This document shows, in pieces, positions 22,655-54,100 of a DNA stretch of 64,000 nt. Source of the stretch: Escherichia phage vb_EcoM_bov9_1; the sequence record MT884006.2; one strand, 5' to 3'. The stretch's first letter is position 1. Every line of letters starts with the position of its first letter. The notes beneath the pieces are model-generated. The model ran no database searches, was not told where the DNA came from, and worked only from the letters and a program-made list of their open reading frames with translations. The position numbers and the translations under genes were made by a program.

Positions 22655-22657
22655 CAA

Positions 22658-22677
22658 TGGGGACCTTTCGGTCCCCA
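22658..22677 (+). terminator. Terminator hairpin after gene 54
   Basis: TGGGGACC-TTTC-GGTCCCCA followed by TATTTTTATTT. Confidence 0.55.
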
Positions 22678-22682
22678 TATTT

Positions 22683-22973
22683 TTATTTACGGAATGAAAT
22701 GAAAGCAGAAACTGAAGCAACTAAACTGTCTTCAATATAAACTTCAATTTTTACCGGAGCTTCTGACTCAAATTTACCTGTTACTACACCCTGAAAAATG
22801 CTTTCAGTCTGTTCTGGCTTTGAAAAATTTTCAGAAGGGAAAATTCCGAACTTTTTATCTGTTCCAAAAATTTTAATAAATTCATCGTAAACTGCTTCAT
22901 TAAAAGCGTTATCAGCAGGAATAACGCCTTCAACTACAAGTTCTTGACCTAAAAAGCGCAAAGAAGATTTCAT
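22683..22973 (-). CDS. Hypothetical protein, 96 aa (T4 alt.-x position)
   Basis: ORF preceded by conserved early-promoter cassette and GAGGA RBS. Confidence 0.55.
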   Translation of the reverse strand: MKSSLRFLGQELVVEGVIPADNAFNEAVYDEFIKIFGTDKKFGIFPSENFSKPEQTESIFQGVVTGKFESEAPVKIEVYIEDSLVASVSAFISFRK

Positions 22974-22980
22974 TTTGTGT

Positions 22981-23034
22981 TCCTCATGTTATGTCAGTAA
23001 GACTACTATAACACAACATAAGGAACTTGTAAAC
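22981..23034 (-). promoter_or_regulatory. Early promoter cassette (GTTTACA -35, 17-nt spacer, TATAGT -10, GAGGA RBS), copy A
   Basis: sigma70-like elements on minus strand; 51/54 nt identical to copy at 37956-38009. Confidence 0.55.
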
Positions 23035-25091
23035 TACATTTTGAACTTTTTAGACATTCCGTTGATGTTAACCAAAGAAGCTAAGATTTGAGAAACTTCG
23101 TTTTCCTCTTCTTTTGATTCTTCTACAAGGAATTGATTAAATCCAGCCATTGGACGAACTTCACCAGTTTCCATCAGATGGTCGCCATCATATACTGATT
23201 CTTCTAATTGTTCAGAAGGAGGAACGATTGTACCTTCGATTAGATACTTGTTATAAGCAGTTTCTTTCATCATGTACGTACTTACTTTATTAATCTTCAG
23301 TAAAATTCCACGCGGCAAAATAACTTCAGCTTCGGATGGAAATCCTGATAAATGACCTGGAACGATAACTTTAACTCGTTCAGCTCCTTTAATTACCATA
23401 CCTACATTAGTTTCAGCGTCTTCATTCGCATATGTAGAATGACTACCCATATGCATTAAATCTTCAGCATCAACTGAACCTTCTCCTTCACCAGAAAATA
23501 CTGCTCCGGAATCATCTAAGGCCATATAATTTTTACCATATTCACCGAAGATATTTGGCTTGAGTGAAGTAGATACAAAGTTCTTGAAATAGAACATTTT
23601 ATTTTCTATATTATGACGTAAAGTTTTAAAGGTAACTTCTTGCCCACGATAAAGAGTAGTTCCTGGAGGAAGAACTGAACCTTTAGAAAATGCAGAATCC
23701 AGCGTCTCAATATGTTTAATAGCTCGTTCCATATATTCTTCACGGGTAGAATCAGGTTTACCTAGAAGGAACGAGTTCATTTCAACATATGAATCTGCGC
23801 AATAATCTTCAATTACATCAGACTCAGCCTGAGTTAATCCTTTTGGAGTTACTTCAGTGCTTGCATATTCATATGCCTGAGCAGCAGATTCATCAATTAA
23901 TTTATAAATTCCATTCATTACAAATTGAATAATAGCTGTCTTTTCATCTGGTGTAGCTTTAGAACCTTTAACTAAATCATTGACAATTTTCTTAATAACA
24001 TCAAAGCTATTAGAAATATTAATGTCAGCAAGATCGCTTAAAATTTTATCAGTTTTATAATCAAAGAATTCTTTATTCTTTAAATATTCTTGAGAACCTT
24101 GATATGTTATATCGCTCTGCAGCTTGATAGATGGATCGCGTAAACGTGCATGGGCCAATGCAATATGATTTCGGAAGCTTTCGAGTTCATAATCACTAGA
24201 TTTAAAACGAGAAGCACTTCTCATACCACCGATAGCTCCTTTGCTAAAGTTTGAACCAACCTGAATAACGCCAGAGTTCATTGGTCCTTCTGCTTTATAT
24301 ACCGGAACTTTAGATTCAAACTCTTGATATTTCTTAGCAGCGAAGCTATCACCCTGAAGTGAAGCATCAACAGTAGAATATTGAGCTTGTGCTGCTAATC
24401 GACGACTAATTTTAGTTTTCTGAATAACAGCTTGATCCGTGCGCTTATCATTTTCTAAAGCAATAGAAGCAGCAACAGCAACAGCTTTAGGAACAGCATT
24501 ACCTGTTTTAACGTCTACATAAACATCACCAACCTTTGATTCAACTTTTGTGAATAACTCGGTTGAAATAGGAGGTACACCTGGAATGTCTTCTAAATTG
24601 GCATTTTTACGGTAAACCATAATATATGCGTACTTTTTATCATAATCCCAGATTTCCTTTAAAAGAACATATCGACCTGCTCCTTTAGTACGTACTAAAC
24701 GGTCAGCAATAACTTGCATTTGCCGAGCAGCGCCATTTGTTTTACTTTTTAGTACGCGGAATAAGCATGCATCAATTTTATACTGTTTCATTGTTTGAAG
24801 AGCAGTATCAAAAACAGCATTAATGACGCCAATTGGATTTCCACCCAAGTTTTTAAGCTTAACTAATGATAGTTTCTCATTAACACCTATCATTACGATA
24901 TGCATCATTTTGTCGCCTGGCTTAACGTTTTTATTCGTATCACCGCCAGAGGTGTATGTACAAAATCTAAATCCAGGAAGCACGCTTTCTTCACCTGCTT
25001 GAATAGCAAAAATTTGAGGTATTTTATGCTTAGGATTTAAGTTAACAACCGGCGCCGAAGCGCCGTCAAATAATTCTGTAATAAGTTCCAT
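23034..25091 (-). CDS. Alt-family mono-ADP-ribosyltransferase paralog (685 aa)
   Basis: N-terminal about 230 aa near-identical to adjacent Alt; C-terminal ART signature R (LYRGQ), STS (FVSTSL), ExE (SEAEVILPRG). Confidence 0.8.
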   Translation of the reverse strand: MELITELFDGASAPVVNLNPKHKIPQIFAIQAGEESVLPGFRFCTYTSGGDTNKNVKPGDKMMHIVMIGVNEKLSLVKLKNLGGNPIGVINAVFDTALQTMKQYKIDACLFRVLKSKTNGAARQMQVIADRLVRTKGAGRYVLLKEIWDYDKKYAYIMVYRKNANLEDIPGVPPISTELFTKVESKVGDVYVDVKTGNAVPKAVAVAASIALENDKRTDQAVIQKTKISRRLAAQAQYSTVDASLQGDSFAAKKYQEFESKVPVYKAEGPMNSGVIQVGSNFSKGAIGGMRSASRFKSSDYELESFRNHIALAHARLRDPSIKLQSDITYQGSQEYLKNKEFFDYKTDKILSDLADINISNSFDVIKKIVNDLVKGSKATPDEKTAIIQFVMNGIYKLIDESAAQAYEYASTEVTPKGLTQAESDVIEDYCADSYVEMNSFLLGKPDSTREEYMERAIKHIETLDSAFSKGSVLPPGTTLYRGQEVTFKTLRHNIENKMFYFKNFVSTSLKPNIFGEYGKNYMALDDSGAVFSGEGEGSVDAEDLMHMGSHSTYANEDAETNVGMVIKGAERVKVIVPGHLSGFPSEAEVILPRGILLKINKVSTYMMKETAYNKYLIEGTIVPPSEQLEESVYDGDHLMETGEVRPMAGFNQFLVEESKEEENEVSQILASLVNINGMSKKFKM

Positions 25092-25094
25092 GAT

Positions 25095-27188
25095 TTATCC
25101 TTGAACGAACTTGTAAGGCATGTTTGTAATATCTATGCAAGACGCAATAATTCCAAGAGATGATTCTACTTTCTGTTTAATATTTGATGAAACAAATGAT
25201 GCAAAGTCAACTCTGTCTTCTATTTCAATATCACCTGTCATTGCAGCCAATTCACCAGTTTCCATTAAATGGTCTCCATCATAGATTACCGATTCGGTGA
25301 GCTCTTCCGTGGTCATAACTTCAGCTTGAATGAGTTTTGTATTATTAGATGTTGTTCCGTCATTATTAGAAGCATCGGTTATTTTATTAACTTTGACCAT
25401 CAATCCACGCGGTAGAATAACTTCAGCTTCTGTTGCTATTCCGAGACTTCCTGGATATACAACATTAACTTTATGAGCTCCATCAATTGCCCATCCTATT
25501 TGAACTTTAACATATTCAGGATTTTCTTTATACGCTCTTATTTCGTTTGGATTAATAGTTATTCCTTCTTCATTTTTATCAACTGTTAATTCATTGCGAG
25601 CTTCTGGTTCTAAAAGACCAATACCAGCATGTGTGATTCCAAAACGTCCAAAAATGATAGGAGTTAAAGAAGTAGATACAAAATTTCTGAAGTAGAACAC
25701 TTTATTTTTAACTAACGCTTCATATATAGGAGCAGTCATACTTTGAGCACGATAAACTGTAATGCCTTCTGGTATACGGTCACCATTTTCAAAAGCTGAA
25801 TCTAAGTTATTTATAGCAGATTCAATTTCTTTTTCACTCATTACATCGTATCGTTCTGGATTGTAACGACCTAAAAGAAGATTATTGATGTCAGTATATC
25901 CTGATCCACAATACTCTCTAATGCCGCGCTTTTGCGATGGAGTATATTTAGAACCATCACGTGCAATGGTAATATCAATCATTGGACCTGCACCAATTCC
26001 AGAAAAGCTATAAATCATTCGTTTGAGGAATTTAGTTTTTGCTGCGTTCCAGGAATTTTTAGTTATTTCTTCCCAGACTTCATCTGGCTGCCCTTTACGA
26101 GTTTTATTATGTTTATCAAGCCAATTATCTTTATATTCTTCAAATAATTGATTAACAGCTGCTGCGTATTTCTCTAAACATTTTATTGAAGTAGTTGGTT
26201 CATTTTTAATCGCATTAAGAATTACATCTTTAATTTTTTCAGAAACTTCATTAACCTCACTTTTTAAAAAGAATTTATAGTCATAGTGAAGTTCATCTGC
26301 GGTTCCTTCGGCAATAATTTTTGCTGCCTTAGTTTTAGAAGCTAATGAATTAATTCCAAGCTTCATTTCTTCTGCTTCGGGAATTAAAGGAGCTGTAGCA
26401 GGTTTATTGAAATTAGCTGCGGTAGATTCATATTTCTGGAATAATTCGCTTTCAAATCTAGAAGATTCTAATGACTGACTTTGTGCAATTGCTCTACGGG
26501 AAATTTTAACTTTAACGATAACAGCTTGGTCAGAGCGTTTATCATTTTCTTGTGCAATAGATGCTGCAATTGCCTCATTTTTAGTTACTTGAGCTCCAGT
26601 ATCTTTATTGATATAAACATCGCCGACTTTCGATTCAACCTTAGTAAAGAGCTCGGTACTAATTTCAGGAACTCCTGGAATGTCTTCTAGTGATACATTT
26701 TTGCGATGTATAAGAATATATGCGTACTTTTTATCATAATCCCAGAGTTCCTTAAGAAGGACGTATCTGCCACCTGAACGACTACGGATAAGTCTATCAG
26801 CAATAACTTGAATTTGTCGAGCTTGACCAGCAGTTTTAGACTTAAGAATACGAAGCATACAGGCATCAATTTTATACTGACGCATCGTCTGCATTGCAAC
26901 AGTAAAAACTGAATTGATGTAATTAATTGGGCTTGGACCGAGACCTTTTAATTTAGCAATTGAACCTTTAGCAGTTAATGTAAAAGGAACAATATGCATC
27001 ATTTTATCGCCCATTTTTAAATCGCGATTAGTATCACCTCCAGATGTATAGGTACATAAACGAAAGCCTGGTTGTTCAATTGCATCATCAACATGAACTG
27101 AAAAAATTTGTGGTATTTTCTTCTTTGGATTTAAGTTTGTAATCGGAAGAGTAGTATCTTCGTCAAATAATTCTGTAATAAGTTCCAT
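25095..27188 (-). CDS. alt: Alt ADP-ribosyltransferase (697 aa), capsid-packaged internal protein
   Basis: ART motifs VYRAQ, FVSTSL, TEAEVILPRG; N-terminus MELITELFD...; late promoter TATAAATA at 27213-27220; position next to gene 30. Confidence 0.8.
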   Translation of the reverse strand: MELITELFDEDTTLPITNLNPKKKIPQIFSVHVDDAIEQPGFRLCTYTSGGDTNRDLKMGDKMMHIVPFTLTAKGSIAKLKGLGPSPINYINSVFTVAMQTMRQYKIDACMLRILKSKTAGQARQIQVIADRLIRSRSGGRYVLLKELWDYDKKYAYILIHRKNVSLEDIPGVPEISTELFTKVESKVGDVYINKDTGAQVTKNEAIAASIAQENDKRSDQAVIVKVKISRRAIAQSQSLESSRFESELFQKYESTAANFNKPATAPLIPEAEEMKLGINSLASKTKAAKIIAEGTADELHYDYKFFLKSEVNEVSEKIKDVILNAIKNEPTTSIKCLEKYAAAVNQLFEEYKDNWLDKHNKTRKGQPDEVWEEITKNSWNAAKTKFLKRMIYSFSGIGAGPMIDITIARDGSKYTPSQKRGIREYCGSGYTDINNLLLGRYNPERYDVMSEKEIESAINNLDSAFENGDRIPEGITVYRAQSMTAPIYEALVKNKVFYFRNFVSTSLTPIIFGRFGITHAGIGLLEPEARNELTVDKNEEGITINPNEIRAYKENPEYVKVQIGWAIDGAHKVNVVYPGSLGIATEAEVILPRGLMVKVNKITDASNNDGTTSNNTKLIQAEVMTTEELTESVIYDGDHLMETGELAAMTGDIEIEDRVDFASFVSSNIKQKVESSLGIIASCIDITNMPYKFVQG

Positions 27189-27212
27189 GTTATCCTCTCT
27201 AGTGTTTATTCT

Positions 27213-27220
27213 ATTTATAA
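27213..27220 (-). promoter_or_regulatory. Late promoter (minus strand TATAAATA) for alt
   Basis: Plus-strand TATTTATA 25 nt upstream of alt start 27188. Confidence 0.55.
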
Positions 27221-31560: not shown

Positions 31561-31600
31561 GGTACAGGTATATAATATCATATCCTGTACCAAAGTAAAC
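31561..31600 (-). promoter_or_regulatory. Early promoter (GTTTAC...TATTAT) overlapped by 8-bp inverted repeat GGTACAGG/CCTGTACC
   Basis: Inverted repeat flanks the -10 region; between two 30.x ORFs. Confidence 0.4.
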
Positions 31601-32045: not shown

Positions 32046-32264
32046 TTATGCTTTCTGCTTACCAAAACGAGAAGCATCATCTCGAAGAACCGCACGTGCT
32101 CGGCGCATGATCTTCTCAACAGTTTGATTGATACGAGAGTTCGACCCACGCTTGTAGCCAGCGCGTTTAGAATCACCAACTTTCTTTTCAACTGCTTTCT
32201 TTGCTTTAGCTTGTTTTGCCATTATAAATTCTCTTTTAAATGAAAATGCAGGACTTATTGGCAT
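32046..32264 (-). CDS. Small highly basic protein (Lys/Arg-rich; 72 aa or 58 aa from second ATG at 32222)
   Basis: Two in-frame ATGs; strong terminator hairpin just downstream of stop. Confidence 0.45.
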   Translation of the reverse strand: MPISPAFSFKREFIMAKQAKAKKAVEKKVGDSKRAGYKRGSNSRINQTVEKIMRRARAVLRDDASRFGKQKA

Positions 32265-33224: not shown

Positions 33225-33258
33225 AATTAATAATAACAAATAATTCTTAAAGCATTTA
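33225..33258 (-). promoter_or_regulatory. Middle promoter candidate for gene 31 (MotA box AAATGCTTTA plus TATTAT)
   Basis: Minus strand AAATGCTTTAAGAATTATTTGTTATTAT about 30 nt upstream of gene 31 ATG. Confidence 0.4.
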
Positions 33259-33564
33259 TTTACCAATAAATTGAAGCAAATGCTCAACTTTCATACCATT
33301 AACAGAAATCAATTTGTCAATAGAAAAACCTCGCCATGCGCCAAGTTCAACATCAAATACTGGAATCATGTCAGTAGATTCTTTCCGAGTAGATTCAGTC
33401 AATTTACCAGTTTGCATGGTTGGCATAAAGTCTGCATCACGAGTACCTTTCATAGTACGAATAGTACCATCAGACTTTTCAAAAACTACGTTTGAAACAC
33501 CCATGGACAATTTGGTTTTCAAAATTTCGCGAATTGCTACTTTCTGCTCAGTTGTCAGTTTCAT
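33256..33564 (-). CDS. Hypothetical protein, 102 aa (31.1 position)
   Basis: ORF; synteny. Confidence 0.5.
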   Translation of the reverse strand: MKLTTEQKVAIREILKTKLSMGVSNVVFEKSDGTIRTMKGTRDADFMPTMQTGKLTESTRKESTDMIPVFDVELGAWRGFSIDKLISVNGMKVEHLLQFIGK

Positions 33565-33801
33565 TTATTTACCTATTACAGTTTTAATATGAGTTGTTCC
33601 ACGTTCTTTAAGGGTGGAAAGTAATTTTTGGCATTTTTCTAAATCAGATTTCCAACTATACGGTCTATCAATACAAACCCATTCTGACTTATAATACTGC
33701 TTCCATTTAGAGAAAAAATATTTCTTATACTCTACAGCAAATGAAATGTTCTCGTTAGAATAAGAACTAATTGCTGTGAGCTGTACCAAACGAAATTTCA
33801 T
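33565..33801 (-). CDS. Hypothetical protein, 78 aa (31.2 position)
   Basis: ORF abutting cd. Confidence 0.5.
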   Translation of the reverse strand: MKFRLVQLTAISSYSNENISFAVEYKKYFFSKWKQYYKSEWVCIDRPYSWKSDLEKCQKLLSTLKERGTTHIKTVIGK

Positions 33802-34382
33802 TATTCACCACAGAATTCGTTGATATTTTCCCAGTTTAACTTATTCAAGTTTTTCTTAGGAACATTAAACACTTCAATACCTGCATTTCGCAGAATATCA
33901 TCCCAACCAGGTTTATTTTTATCGTATGTTTCGCAATAAACCAGCTTTTTAATTCCAGATTGAGCTATCGCTTTTGCACAATCTGGACAAGGAGAAAGTG
34001 TTACATACATAGTAGCACCTTCAATAGAAGAACCATTTCGTGCAGCAAACAAAATTGCATTTAGTTCAGCATGAATTTCATTTTTAGATGACCATTCCGA
34101 GTGAGCACTACGATGTTCTTTTGCCAAGACAAAACGATCAGTTGAACCAAATGATACGCATTCAGGCTTATGGCCTTGAATGATAGTATGTTTAGGCTTA
34201 TTCAACAACCATCCTTGCTCAGCAGCATAATCACAACAGTTCACACCCCCTGCGGGTGAACCATTATACCCAGTAGAAATAATACGTCCATTCTTTTCAA
34301 TTACTGCTCCTACCTTCCAGGAGCAACATTTTGATTCTTGTGATACTAAATATGCAATTTGAAGTACTGTACTCGCTTTCAT
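33801..34382 (-). CDS. cd: dCMP deaminase (193 aa)
   Basis: Zinc-binding deaminase motifs HAELNAI and PCPDCAKAI; 193 aa as T4 Cd. Confidence 0.9.
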   Translation of the reverse strand: MKASTVLQIAYLVSQESKCCSWKVGAVIEKNGRIISTGYNGSPAGGVNCCDYAAEQGWLLNKPKHTIIQGHKPECVSFGSTDRFVLAKEHRSAHSEWSSKNEIHAELNAILFAARNGSSIEGATMYVTLSPCPDCAKAIAQSGIKKLVYCETYDKNKPGWDDILRNAGIEVFNVPKKNLNKLNWENINEFCGE

Positions 34383-37104: not shown

Positions 37105-37454
37105 TTAGAAAGGTCCTGGATGTCTTCTGCGAACTTGTTGAAGGAGTTGTTGATTTGTTTTTCAACCAATCCTGGCTTATGAGCCACCACATCCGCCTTC
37201 TTTGCGTCTTTGCGCAGTTTTTCATTTTCACGCTCAATAGCAGCAATTGCCTCACGATTTTTATTATTCATCGCATCAATATAATTATACTGAATTCGCA
37301 AATTATTTAATGCTAAAGCGTTTTCATTGGCTGTTTTTGTAATTTCGGTAACTGATGTTTCTAATCTTTCTACCTTATTTTTTAAAATAATAGATGTTCC
37401 GCCAAATGCTATTACAAGTAATAGCAATCCAGCTGTAAAATTACTTACATGCAT
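37101..37454 (-). CDS. Inner-membrane spanin candidate (117 aa)
   Basis: N-terminal TM helix (GLLLLVIAFGG) followed by coiled-coil-like periplasmic region. Confidence 0.6.
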   Translation of the reverse strand: MHVSNFTAGLLLLVIAFGGTSIILKNKVERLETSVTEITKTANENALALNNLRIQYNYIDAMNNKNREAIAAIERENEKLRKDAKKADVVAHKPGLVEKQINNSFNKFAEDIQDLSK

Positions 37455-37951
37455 AAAGTTTTAATAACCTCTATAATATCGTCTTGAGAAAGACCGTTAA
37501 TTAAAATATGATGTTCAGCTGGAGATTTAGAAATTTTAAAGCATGCCTCAACATCTTCTGCCATATCCGATGCACTACGATTTGGATTACTAATACCAAG
37601 GCGGTGTTTTCCCGTCAAAGGATTAACGATGATATAGCATTTGCAGCTATTGATATGAACATTAGGTTGAGTCTGATTAATGAACACTTCACAATCATAC
37701 TTAGCGAGTTGATTTTCTAAAAAGACTTTCATCTCTTCAACCGCATCAGGAAGCATATCACGGGCTTGCTCAAGACGACGATTTCGATATTCTTTAATGG
37801 TCGTTTTCCGCTTGACTTGCTTAGCTAAATCTTTCTTAAGATCGGTGATATATCCAACTCGACGATTTCCTTTAAATACAGAAATCCCATCTGTAGTATC
37901 ACCGTATGCTTCAACGACCATTTCAGTAGTAATAAGCTGCAAATCCATCAT
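37445..37951 (-). CDS. alc: Probable Alc (inhibitor of host transcription on dC-DNA), about 167 aa
   Basis: Length and position between spanin/pseT.x genes and rnlA; early promoter cassette upstream. Confidence 0.55.
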   Translation of the reverse strand: MMDLQLITTEMVVEAYGDTTDGISVFKGNRRVGYITDLKKDLAKQVKRKTTIKEYRNRRLEQARDMLPDAVEEMKVFLENQLAKYDCEVFINQTQPNVHINSCKCYIIVNPLTGKHRLGISNPNRSASDMAEDVEACFKISKSPAEHHILINGLSQDDIIEVIKTLCM

Positions 37952-37955
37952 AAAG

Positions 37956-38009
37956 TCCTCATGTTATGTCAGTAAGACTACTATAACACAACACGAGGGA
38001 CTTGTAAAC
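37956..38009 (-). promoter_or_regulatory. Early promoter cassette, copy B (upstream of alc)
   Basis: Same 54-nt architecture as copy A; GTTTACA...TATAGT...GAGGA then alc ATG. Confidence 0.55.
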
Positions 38010-38012
38010 AGC

Positions 38013-39600
<1,588 letters not shown>

Positions 39601-51183: not shown

Positions 51184-54100
51184 ATGGCCGAGATTAAAAG
51201 AAAGTTCAGAGCAGAAGATGGTCTGGACGCAGGTGGTGATAAAATAATCAACGTAGCTTTAGCTGATCGTGCCGTAGGAACTGACGGTGTTAACGTTGAT
51301 TACTTAATTCAAGAAAACACAGTTCAACAATACGATCCAACTCGTGGATATTTAAAAGATTTTGTAATCATTTATGATAACCGCTTTTGGGCTGCTATAA
51401 ATGATATTCCAAAACCGGCAGGAGCTTTTAATAGCGGACGCTGGAGAGCATTACGTACCGATGCTAACTGGATTACAGTCTCATCTGGTTCATATCAATT
51501 AAAATCCGGTGAAGCAATTTCGGTTAACACCGCAGCTGGAAATGACATCACGTTTACTTTACCATCTTCTCCAATTGATGGCGATACTATCGTTCTCCAA
51601 GATATTGGAGGAAAACCTGGAGTTAACCAAGTTTTAATTGTAGCTCCAGTACAAAGTATTGTAAACTTTAGAGGTGAACAGGTACGTTCAGTACTAATGA
51701 CCCATCCAAAGTCACAGCTAGTTTTAATTTTTAGTAATCGTCTGTGGCAAATGTATGTTGCTGATTATAGTAGAGAAGCTGTAATTGTAACACCAGCGAA
51801 TACTTATCAAGCGCAATCAAATGATTTTATCGTACGTAGATTTACTTCTGCTGCACCAATTAATGTTAAACTTCCAAGATTTGCTAATCATGGCGATATT
51901 ATTAATTTCGTTGATTTAGATAAACTGAATCCACTTTATCATACAATTGTTACTACATACGATGAAACGACTTCAGTACAAGAAGTTGGAACTCATTCCA
52001 TTGAAGGCCGTACATCGATTGACGGTTTCTTGATGTTCGATGATAATGAGAAATTGTGGAGATTGTTTGACGGGGATAGTAAAGCGCGTTTACGCATTAT
52101 AACGACTAATTCTAATATTCGTCCAAATGAAGAAGTTATGGTATTTGGTGCGAATAACGGAACAACTCAAACAATTGAGCTTCAGCTTCCTACTGATATT
52201 TCCGTTGGTGATACTGTTAAAATTTCCATGAATTACATGAGAAAAGGACAAACAGTTAAAATCAAGGCTGCGGGCGAAGATAAAATTGCTTCTTCAGTTC
52301 AATTACTGCAATTCCCAAAACGCTCAGAATATCCGCCTGAGGCTGAATGGGTAACAGTTCAAGAATTAGTTTTTAACGGTGAAACTAATTATGTTCCAGT
52401 TTTGGAGCTTGCTTACATAGAAGATTCTGATGGAAAATACTGGGTTGTGCAACAAAATGTTCCAACTGTAGAAAGAGTAGATTCTTTAAATGATTCTACT
52501 AGAGCAAGATTAGGCGTAATTGCTTTAGCTACACAAGCTCAAGCTAATGTCGATTTAGAAAATTCTCCACAAAAAGAATTAGCAATTACTCCAGAAACGT
52601 TAGCTAATCGTACTGCTACTGAAACTCGCAGAGGTATTGCAAGAATAGCAACTACTGCTCAAGTAAATCAGAACACAACATTCTCTTTTGCTGACGATAT
52701 TATCATCACTCCTAAAAAGCTGAATGAAAGAACGGCTACTGAAACTCGTAGAGGTGTTGCTGAAATTGCTACGCAGCAGGAAACTAATACAGGAACCGAT
52801 GATACTACAATCATTACTCCTAAAAAGCTTCAAGCTCGTCAAGGTTCTGAATCATTATCTGGTATTGTAACTTTTGTATCTACTGCAGGTGCTACTCCAG
52901 CTTCTAGCCGTGAATTAAATGGTACGAATGTTTATAATAAAAACACTAATAATTTAGTTGTTTCACCTAAAGCTTTGGACCAGTATAAAGCTACTCCAAC
53001 ACAGCAAGGTGCAGTAATTTTAGCAGTTGAAAGTGAAGTAATTGCTGGACAAAGTCAACAAGGATGGGCAAATGCTGTTGTAACGCCAGAAACGTTACAT
53101 AAAAAGACATCAACTGATGGAAGAATTGGTTTAATTGAAATTGCTACGCAAAGTGAAGTTAATACAGGAACTGATTATACTCGTGCAGTCACTCCTAAAA
53201 CTTTAAATGACCGTAGAGCAACTGAAAGTTTAAGTGGTATAGCTGAAATTGCTACACAAGTTGAATTCGACGCAGGCGTCGACGATACTCGTATCTCTAC
53301 ACCATTAAAAATTAAAACTAGATTTAATAGTACTGATCGTACTTCTGTTGTTGCTCTATCTGGATTAGTTGAATCAGGAACTCTCTGGGACCATTATACC
53401 CTTAATATTCTTGAAGCAAATGAGACACAGCGTGGTACACTTCGTGTAGCTACACAGGTTGAAGCTGCTGCAGGAACATTAGATAATGTTTTAATAACTC
53501 CTAAAAAGCTTTTAGGTACTAAATCTACCGAATCACAAGAAGGTGTTATTAAAGTTGCAACTCAGTCTGAAACTGTGACTGGAACATCAGCAAATACTGC
53601 TGTATCTCCAAAAAATTTAAAATGGATTGTGCAGAGTGAACCTACCTGGGCAGCTACTACTGCGGTAAGAGGTTTTGTTAAAACTTCATCTGGTTCAATT
53701 ACATTCGTTGGTAATGATACAGTAGGTTCTACACAGAACTTAGAGCTATACGAGAAAAATAGCTATGCAGTATCACCGTATGAATTAAACCGTGTATTAG
53801 CAAATTACTTGCCATTAAAAGCAAAAGCTGCTGACACGAATTTATTGGATGGTCTAGATTCATCTCAGTTCATTCGTAGGGACATTGCACAGACGGTTAA
53901 TGGTTCACTAACCTTAACCCAACAAACGAATCTGAGTGCCCCTCTTGTATCATCTAGTACTGCTACGTTTGGTGGTTCAGTTTCGGCAAATAGTACATTA
54001 ACTATTTCTAATACTGGTACGTCTTCTTCTCGATTTACATTTGAGAAGGGCCCTGCTTCTGGTAGTAATGCTGATTCTGCATTGCATGTTCGTGTATGGG

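Follow-up and report, generated by a model that had tools for sequence, protein, structure and literature searches.

A duplicated early-promoter cassette in a T4-like phage is predicted to fold over its own ribosome-binding site

Two copies of one early-promoter cassette

The consensus of the T4 early promoters (Pe) covers the contacts of RNA polymerase only. Why, then, are two early promoters ~15 kb apart in one phage genome near-identical across spacer and leader as well, an identity that the consensus leaves unexplained? We addressed this question in a 64,000-nucleotide stretch of Escherichia phage vb_EcoM_bov9_1 (MT884006.2), referred to here as the window. The window sequence is identical in the Tequatrovirus phage vb_EcoM_bov10K1 (MT884007.2), where the record coordinate is the window coordinate + 96001. 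The features of the two loci are as follows.

22981..23034, minus strand: cassette copy 1, from the -35 to the SD, upstream of alt.-3
23033-23028, minus strand: copy 1 -35, TTTACA
23010-23005, minus strand: copy 1 -10, TATAGT
near 22998, minus strand: copy 1 putative transcription start, placed by promoter geometry ~7 nt after the -10
22985-22981, minus strand: copy 1 SD, GAGGA
22683..22973, minus strand: alt.-3 homolog, 96 aa, DUF5498 (Pfam), the gene served by copy 1
23034..25091, minus strand: Alt paralog, an ADP-ribosyltransferase, whose stop codon includes base 1 of copy 1 and whose mRNA would supply read-through into alt.-3
27212..27219, minus strand: late-promoter consensus TATAAATA, immediately upstream of alt
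22657..22678, unstranded: bidirectional terminator-like hairpin between the convergent genes 54 and alt.-3
37956..38009, minus strand: cassette copy 2, from the -35 to the SD, upstream of alc
38008-38003, minus strand: copy 2 -35
37985-37980, minus strand: copy 2 -10, TATAGT
near 37973, minus strand: copy 2 putative transcription start
37960-37956, minus strand: copy 2 SD, GAGGA
37445..37951, minus strand: alc, host transcription inhibitor, PF17527, the gene served by copy 2
38013..39137, minus strand: rnlA, the upstream gene, whose transcripts are predicted to read into the alc cassette

An earlier note on this DNA had described a near-identical 54-nt pair with a 38-nt core, and every detail of that description is borne out. 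The segments 22981-23034 and 37956-38009 are identical at 51 of 54 nt, both by direct reading and by a repeat finder (family D10), and the exact core TCCTCATGTTATGTCAGTAAGACTACTATAACACAACA occurs twice in the window. A search for the core with up to three mismatches allowed returned no match in 100 dinucleotide shuffles. The three differences between the copies (repeat positions 39, 40 and 44 on the plus strand) fall in the promoter spacer. When 34 promoter-like sites in the window were compared, the cassette pair scored 51/54 and the runner-up pair 33/54, in line with the note's statement that other early promoters share only the hexamers. Within the pair, identity extends well beyond the -35 and -10: homology runs from the G of GTTTAC through the last A of GAGGA, with unrelated flanks on either side. 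Copy 1 adjoins the Alt paralog, whose TAG stop (23036-23034) shares its G with GTTTAC, and copy 2 begins 3 nt past the rnlA stop; the genes surrounding both copies all lie on the minus strand. BLAST found exactly two cassette places in MT884007.2, which gives the copy number genome-wide. T4 itself carries the same pair (NC_000866 123040-123093 and 136283-136336, minus strand), one base apart at 53/54 identity, supporting the suggestion of a duplicated module. The repeat is ordinary from the standpoint of genome annotation, and is neither an assembly artefact nor a mobile element.

Both copies contain TTTACA, a 17-nt spacer with TG, and TATAGT (10/12 consensus matches), followed by a leader of ~13 nt and a GAGGA placed 7 nt ahead of the start codon; alc has two in-frame ATGs, at 37951 and 37948. 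An A/T-rich stretch inside coding sequence precedes each promoter, directly upstream of the -35 in copy 1 (AAAAAGTTCAAAATGTA) and ~12-30 nt upstream of it in copy 2 (AAAAAATTTATCCCAGAAGG). The GTTTAC -35, 17-nt spacer, TGn and TAnnnT -10 are those of a T4 Pe promoter (UP/-35/TGn/-10 type), and the A/T-rich stretches may be UP-like elements. Both copies are annotated as T4 early promoters in phage SA21RB by another annotator, which agrees with the note's name of early-promoter cassette, as does the presence of the pair in T4. Judged by their sequence, both are strong sigma-70 promoters of the T4 early type.

Upstream of copy 1 the window holds tandem full-length Alt-like ADP-ribosyltransferase genes (23034-27188, minus strand), seen as repeats spaced ~2094 nt with 71-80% identity. 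In T4 only fragments of the second Alt-like gene are present, alt.-1 and alt.-2, and the alt.-2 ORF ends at the TAG within the TATAGT -10 of the alt.-3 promoter. The terminator-like hairpin at 22657-22678, annotated as a terminator in SA21RB too, is the end of the alt/alt.-3 transcription unit.

The spacer is complementary to the leader and SD

The main feature of the cassette, absent from the earlier note, is that the promoter spacer is the reverse complement of the leader and SD, a relation that covaries across genera. The cassette is an imperfect inverted repeat in which spacer positions 9-25 pair with leader and SD positions 40-56.

22979..23026, minus strand: hairpin of copy 1; 5' arm = spacer GUUCCUUAUGUUGUGUU, 3' arm = leader + SD ACUGACAUAACAUGAGGAAC
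37953..38003, minus strand: hairpin of copy 2; same core, base extended by AAGUCC/GGACUU with one bulged C

The RNA hairpin of copy 1, with the -10 near its tip, has a minimum free energy (MFE) of -25.7 kcal/mol (z ~ -6; DNA fold z -3.6) and that of copy 2 an MFE of -24.4 kcal/mol (z -6.5). Of the window's ten GTTTAC cassettes, these two form the strongest hairpins. When up to 250 nt of upstream sequence is included in the fold, predicted pair probabilities are 1.00, and the predicted probability that the SD is unpaired in read-through contexts is 0.001-0.03. The putative start site falls in the 3' arm of the hairpin, and opening the ribosome site is predicted to cost 13-15 kcal/mol in read-through RNA vs 3.7 in RNA starting ~7 nt after the -10. 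In RNA initiated at the alt.-3 promoter, the SD is predicted to pair weakly with codons 3-4.

An intrinsic terminator combines a G+C-rich hairpin with a U-run. The hairpins here end in ACACAAAAUG and UAUGAUGG, with no U-run, and a terminator scan made no terminator-like call at either cassette. With copy 1 as the query, Rfam 15 returned two matches only, both at chance level (22-23 bits vs cut-offs of 50 and 140). We also considered a DNA cruciform or a palindromic protein site and rejected both: the arms covary and are not conserved, and the G-T pairs are valid on one strand only. As G-U pairs in the stem, they are compatible with a structure in the sense-strand RNA.

One further early-promoter cassette of the window, at 31992-31935 (minus strand), has complementarity between its spacer, TTCCTTTG, and its SD region, CAAAGGAG. 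Stems of 6-8 bp at three others (31600, 35012 and 47109) bracket the -10 and leave the SD uncovered.

Covariation of the pairing upstream of alc

In 11 lineages the alc spacer is complementary to the leader and SD although the sequences themselves differ. We assembled a covariation set of 15 sequences from at least nine genera, including Tequatro-, Dhaka-, Gelderland-, Karam-, Kanagawa-, Jiaoda-, Winkler- and Kagamiyamavirus. Arms from outside Tequatrovirus are listed below, with contig labels where needed.

Kagamiyamavirus-like contig L036: 5' arm ATCCTCATTTTGTTG, 3' arm CAACAAAATGAGGAT, 15 bp
Winklervirus: 5' arm TCCTCATTTCGTT, 3' arm AACGAAATGAGGA
Dhakavirus: 5' arm TCTCCTCAT, 3' arm ATGAGGAGA
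L040: 5' arm TCTCCTCAG, 3' arm CTGAGGAGA
Gelderlandvirus: 5' arm ATCTCCGTTT, 3' arm AAACGGAGAT
Karamvirus: 5' arm TCTCCATTTGGTT, 3' arm AACCAAATGGAGA
L042: 5' arm AACCTCTCATTTT, 3' arm AAAATGAGAGGTT
Klebsiella phage: 5' arm ATCCTCATCAG, 3' arm CTGATGAGGAT

In the alignment of these arms 84% of cells are paired, 15 of the 16 pairs have changed on both sides, none of 500 shuffles reached this level of pairing, and slid registers gave 36-48%. Cognate arms paired in 190 of 225 cells vs 150 +/- 6 with arms swapped between lineages (0/20000 permutations); the arms were aligned at the SD-adjacent pair and thus anchored on the stem, so that these numbers lean towards structure. Single compensatory pairs are visible in the sequences themselves, and the pairing tracks changes in the SD itself: GAGGA with CCTC, GGAGA with TCTCC, GAGAGG with CCTCTC and GGGGA with TCCC. 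The register of the stem with respect to the -35 and -10 differs from lineage to lineage, and for this reason RNAalifold predicted no pairs when given 12 alc cassettes aligned by MAFFT alone.

Five alc lineages (Mosigvirus, L054, L041/L053, PEi20 and Lazarusvirus) do not cover the SD; their stem brackets the -10 only or lies inside the spacer. Masking of the SD upstream of alc, as predicted from these sequences, is common and not universal. The covariation across at least nine genera indicates, at the level of sequence, that the alc pairing is under selection in some respect.

The Gaprivervirus-like contigs L038, L039 and L056 have an alc promoter of another type, ~60-100 nt upstream of alc (start 601). 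It contains a G4/C4 hairpin, AAAGGGGTGTACAAGCCCCTT, with a TGTACA -35-like hexamer in the loop, and resembles the stem of the RB49-type promoter-early stem-loop (PeSL) cassettes.

Variation and origin of the two copies in Tequatrovirus

A BLAST search with copy 1 found two places in each of ~499 Tequatrovirus records. Exact-pattern scans of the IMG/VR and JGI metagenomes yielded 5-8 T4-like loci, too few for a population survey, and variation was sampled in GenBank phages instead. The 12 genomes with both copies have 0-5 bases between the paralogs and no fixed difference, and in some the paralogs match at 54/54; phage Ge15 was sampled for copy 1 only. Across the 12 genomes the consensus common to both copies is GTTTACAAGTCCCTCGTGTTGTGTTATAGTAGTCTTACTGACATAACATGAGGA, and the variable sites are spacer positions 11-16, -10/loop positions 27-34 and three singletons in the leader. 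The three differences seen in the window make up a spacer haplotype, TTCCTTATG, also found in T2, T6 and one metagenomic phage. Its C-to-T change at position 11 closes a mismatch from the alt.-3-specific flank, and its helix is the most regular among all variants. The alt.-3 copy is more variable than the alc copy (3.18 vs 1.58). The hairpin is retained in every natural Tequatrovirus variant, with energies of -15 to -26 kcal/mol. About six of the substitutions within the genus keep pairing and four break it, a pattern that is not clearly compensatory, and these substitutions are uninformative for structure.

Two of the sampled records have features of their own. Ge15 (PP359696.1; L024 10210-11244) carries annotations of an IS2-like transposase, InsC/InsD, in the gene 30.x region between the cassettes. 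In Shigella phage sb4 (PQ666542.1; L023) alt, the ligase gene, rnlA and others are broken into short ORFs, which suggests frameshift errors of assembly rather than biology.

Outside Tequatrovirus the alt.-3 promoter differs. Dhaka-, Marfa-, Kagamiyama-, Mosig- and Gaprivervirus share a small spacer hairpin of the CCACAAGGATGTGG type, and we found no anti-SD in the alt.-3 promoters of these five outgroup genera. The flanks of the Tequatrovirus alt.-3 cassette (..TTCAAAATGTA / ACACAAAATGAAATC) are orthologous to the outgroup alt.-3 loci. The simplest reading of these sequences is that, in the ancestor of Tequatrovirus, an alc-type cassette replaced the ancestral alt.-3 promoter between GTTTACAAG and CATGAGGA. 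Replacement could have proceeded by recombination at these short shared ends, GTTTACAAG and CATGAGGA, after which divergence of both copies would have been slow, with promoter, hairpin and SD jointly constraining the sequence. Cassette identity is 40-43/54 to outgroup alc and 34-41/54 to outgroup alt.-3 and leaves the direction of transfer unsettled; we deduce the direction from promoter architecture, not from overall identity.

A Dhakavirus genome (IMGVR_UViG_2706795356) has 32 nt of alt.-3 leader, up to the start codon, at alc, and this leader is single-copy in seven other Dhakavirus-like contigs. From its sequence we read this case as an independent partial exchange in the opposite direction, from alt.-3 to alc. 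The earlier note had raised a recombination substrate as one meaning of the repeat: as history this stands, given the outgroup alt.-3 promoters and the Dhakavirus transfer, and as ongoing exchange within Tequatrovirus it does not, the test having been negative.

The only type of BLAST match outside Tequatrovirus lies in Mosigvirus JS09 (L017 1486-1545), upstream of ndd.1, an unrelated gene. Its -10, leader, SD and SD-to-ATG spacer, GTATAGTAGTCCTACTGAAACATGAGGAACACAAAATG, resemble those of the Tequatrovirus alt.-3 cassette.

A model in which the promoter of origin sets translation, and its alternatives

We favour, with some reserve, the reading that one compact cassette stands at two loci, that it places an early promoter inside an SD-masking hairpin and so makes translation depend on the promoter of origin, and that it reached alt.-3 through a historical replacement from alc. 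Any RNA containing the whole cassette would form a 20-23-bp hairpin with the SD buried in it. RNA from the cassette promoter would start past the -10 and lack the 5' arm, leaving the SD open. Alc and Alt.-3 would thus be made from their own immediate-early transcripts, with little or no synthesis from longer transcripts that enter from upstream.

Such transcripts may have different sources at the two loci. At alc they would be delayed-early or middle rnlA/denA/nrdB RNAs, and at alt.-3 late alt RNAs that traverse the two alt genes. As a head protein that is packaged, Alt is made late (PMC2988021), and the TATAAATA at 27212-27219, a match to the late-promoter consensus, is the probable origin of late transcripts reaching the alt.-3 cassette. 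We found no terminator-like site between rnlA and alc, nor at copy 1, and extension of early transcripts is a normal mode in T4 (PMC2988021); from this arrangement, read-through is expected at both loci. We infer the translational effect, the read-through RNA and the start sites alike from the sequence and its predicted folds.

In its general form the proposal is more tentative: the cassette may be a portable design in which an early promoter sits in an SD-masking hairpin, the gene is translated only from the RNAs of that promoter, and recombination at the -35 and SD ends lets the unit move between genes, the step from alc to alt.-3 in the T4 lineage being one example. If it is correct, protein synthesis would be tied to the brief window of early-promoter activity independently of RegB, and early genes would be kept silent on the delayed-early, middle or late transcripts that cross them, a mirror image of the late-promoter control of lysozyme and I-TevI. 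T4 early protein synthesis stops ~3-4 min after infection, which RegB, ModA and AsiA explain in part (PMC2988021, PMC3014915); a cis-acting hairpin would add a simple extra mechanism to this early shut-off. One of the two genes concerned encodes Alc, a key host-takeover protein.

The stem-loop might instead act as an attenuator or terminator, or as a stabiliser of the 3' end of the upstream mRNA, as in the PeSL model, with inclusion of the SD a by-product of the short intergenic region. PeSL stem-loops of RB49 and phi1 overlap the -10 or spacer, and one acted as a strong terminator in a reporter (PMC2839356). The stems at 31600, 35012 and 47109 likewise have no contact with the SD, as in the five alc lineages in which it is uncovered. 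A terminator is at odds with the missing U-run and the empty terminator scan at both cassettes, and neither function would need a spacer that changes to match the SD between genera. We regard this explanation as unlikely, and note that terminator or stabiliser roles and SD masking are not mutually exclusive. A further possibility is that the hairpin is a translational-coupling device, in which the SD of read-through RNA is opened only by a ribosome finishing the Alt paralog or RnlA. The upstream stops lie 0 and 3 nt from the -35, and a ribosome terminating there could melt the base of the stem and partly expose the SD; from the size of its footprint it would cover the first ~12 nt of the cassette, including bases that pair with the GGA of the SD. 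Most of the stem, including the pairs with the first G and A of GAGGA, lies beyond that footprint and is predicted to stay closed, and we think coupling improbable. Under such coupling, the output of Alc and Alt.-3 from long transcripts would scale with upstream translation instead of being shut down.

Ongoing gene conversion or recombination between the copies (concerted evolution) would account for the lack of fixed paralog differences in the 12 genomes and for paralogs that match at 54/54. T2 and SA21RB each carry the variant GTAATC in both copies, and T4 recombination, according to work cited in PMC2839356, acts on ~50 bp patches. Paralogs within a genome are nevertheless about as distant as copies from different genomes (2.67 vs 2.76; permutation p 0.37), the shared GTAATC variant is not significant (~0.13, by hand calculation), and a crossover between the direct repeats would delete essential genes, e.g. 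30 and 31. It is thus very doubtful that the copies are held identical in this way. The earlier note had also offered a shared regulator or RNA-processing site. Two copies with the same leader would be bound or processed alike, and RegB inactivates T4 early mRNAs at GGAG (PMC3014915), but the cassette has GAGGA without that motif and copy 1 found no match in Rfam. What is conserved across genera is complementarity and not sequence, the signature of a structure rather than of a sequence-specific site, and we give this suggestion almost no weight.

Relation to known cassettes and hairpins

The closest described elements are the PeSL cassettes of T4-like phages (Arbiol et al. 2010, PMC2839356; Comeau et al. 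2014, PMC4122927). PeSLs consist of an upstream stop, an A/T-rich region, a sigma-70 early promoter, a stem-loop over the spacer or -10, and an SD and start codon at the 3' end (PMC2839356), and both copies show this composite anatomy. PeSLs are described as genomic repeats at which recombination occurs, the crossovers falling between the -10 and the SD; here there are two copies per genome, a replaced alt.-3 promoter and the 32-nt leader transfer in Dhakavirus. The T4/PST consensus given there, TTTACW-N17-TAYWAT, is nearly matched by the cassette. There are also differences. PeSLs are placed mainly in hyperplastic regions, beside ORFans, and have been interpreted as terminators or attenuators, whereas alc and alt.-3 are conserved genes with conserved neighbours, found in many genera (1136 and 836 phage records, respectively). 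The PST stem is said to sit just upstream of the promoter, whereas the stem of the cassette reaches from the spacer to the SD and covaries with the latter, lacks a U-tract and is used at two conserved genes. We conclude that the cassette belongs with the PeSL-type promoter cassettes. The stems around the -10 at other early promoters of the window agree with the PeSL concept as set out in PMC2839356. What our analysis adds to this concept is an SD-covering stem with cross-genus covariation at alc, and the copying of the unit to alt.-3, though an earlier mention of these points, of the two promoters or of early-promoter hairpins is possible. The pair is a clean case of a whole promoter-leader-SD unit copied between T4 genes and supports the PeSL view of genome rewiring.

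Hairpins that sequester the ribosome site and contain an internal promoter have been described for the T4 genes e, soc, 49, I-TevI and segB and for Aeh1 mobE (PMC3014915, PMC2988022). In this class, as in the model above, RNAs from upstream promoters mask the SD, and RNA from the internal promoter, without the 5' arm, is translated (PMC3014915, PMC2988022). By prediction the SD of both copies lies in a stable helix, and the promoter lies inside that helix, with the -10 near the hairpin tip and a start site placed by geometry. The described cases differ in using late promoters (TATAAATA) and late-time translation; the promoter of the cassette is of the early sigma-70 type, and two reviews list late-gene cases only (PMC3014915, PMC2988022). 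The cassette thus looks like an early-promoter variant of the SD-masking class and not a member of it, with a function that we infer from predicted folds. Since its internal promoter is early, translation is predicted to be confined to the first minutes of infection, the immediate-early period. RegB would have the same outcome as that proposed here, an end to early-gene translation soon after the early promoters are shut off; it acts by endonuclease cleavage, whereas the cassette, which in Tequatrovirus lacks GGAG, would act by a structure in cis.

Other observations

A likeness of the cassette to a RegA operator (TTGTTATGTAA-like) was found on the non-transcribed plus strand only and was dismissed as coincidence. 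Some product names in MT884007.2 (window positions 32047-32223 and 33257-33802) are doubtful on comparison with T2: a 58-aa ORF is named "glycogen branching enzyme", and the 31.1 and 31.2 homologs are labelled tail fibre proteins. Window positions 52585-53255 (plus strand) contain 3-4 diverged copies of a 35-68-nt unit spaced 108-483 nt apart (families D1, D3 and D14), with the pattern ACTCC.GAAAC..TA......CG.AC.GC.ACTGA...; these repeats probably encode a peptide motif repeated inside a structural gene.
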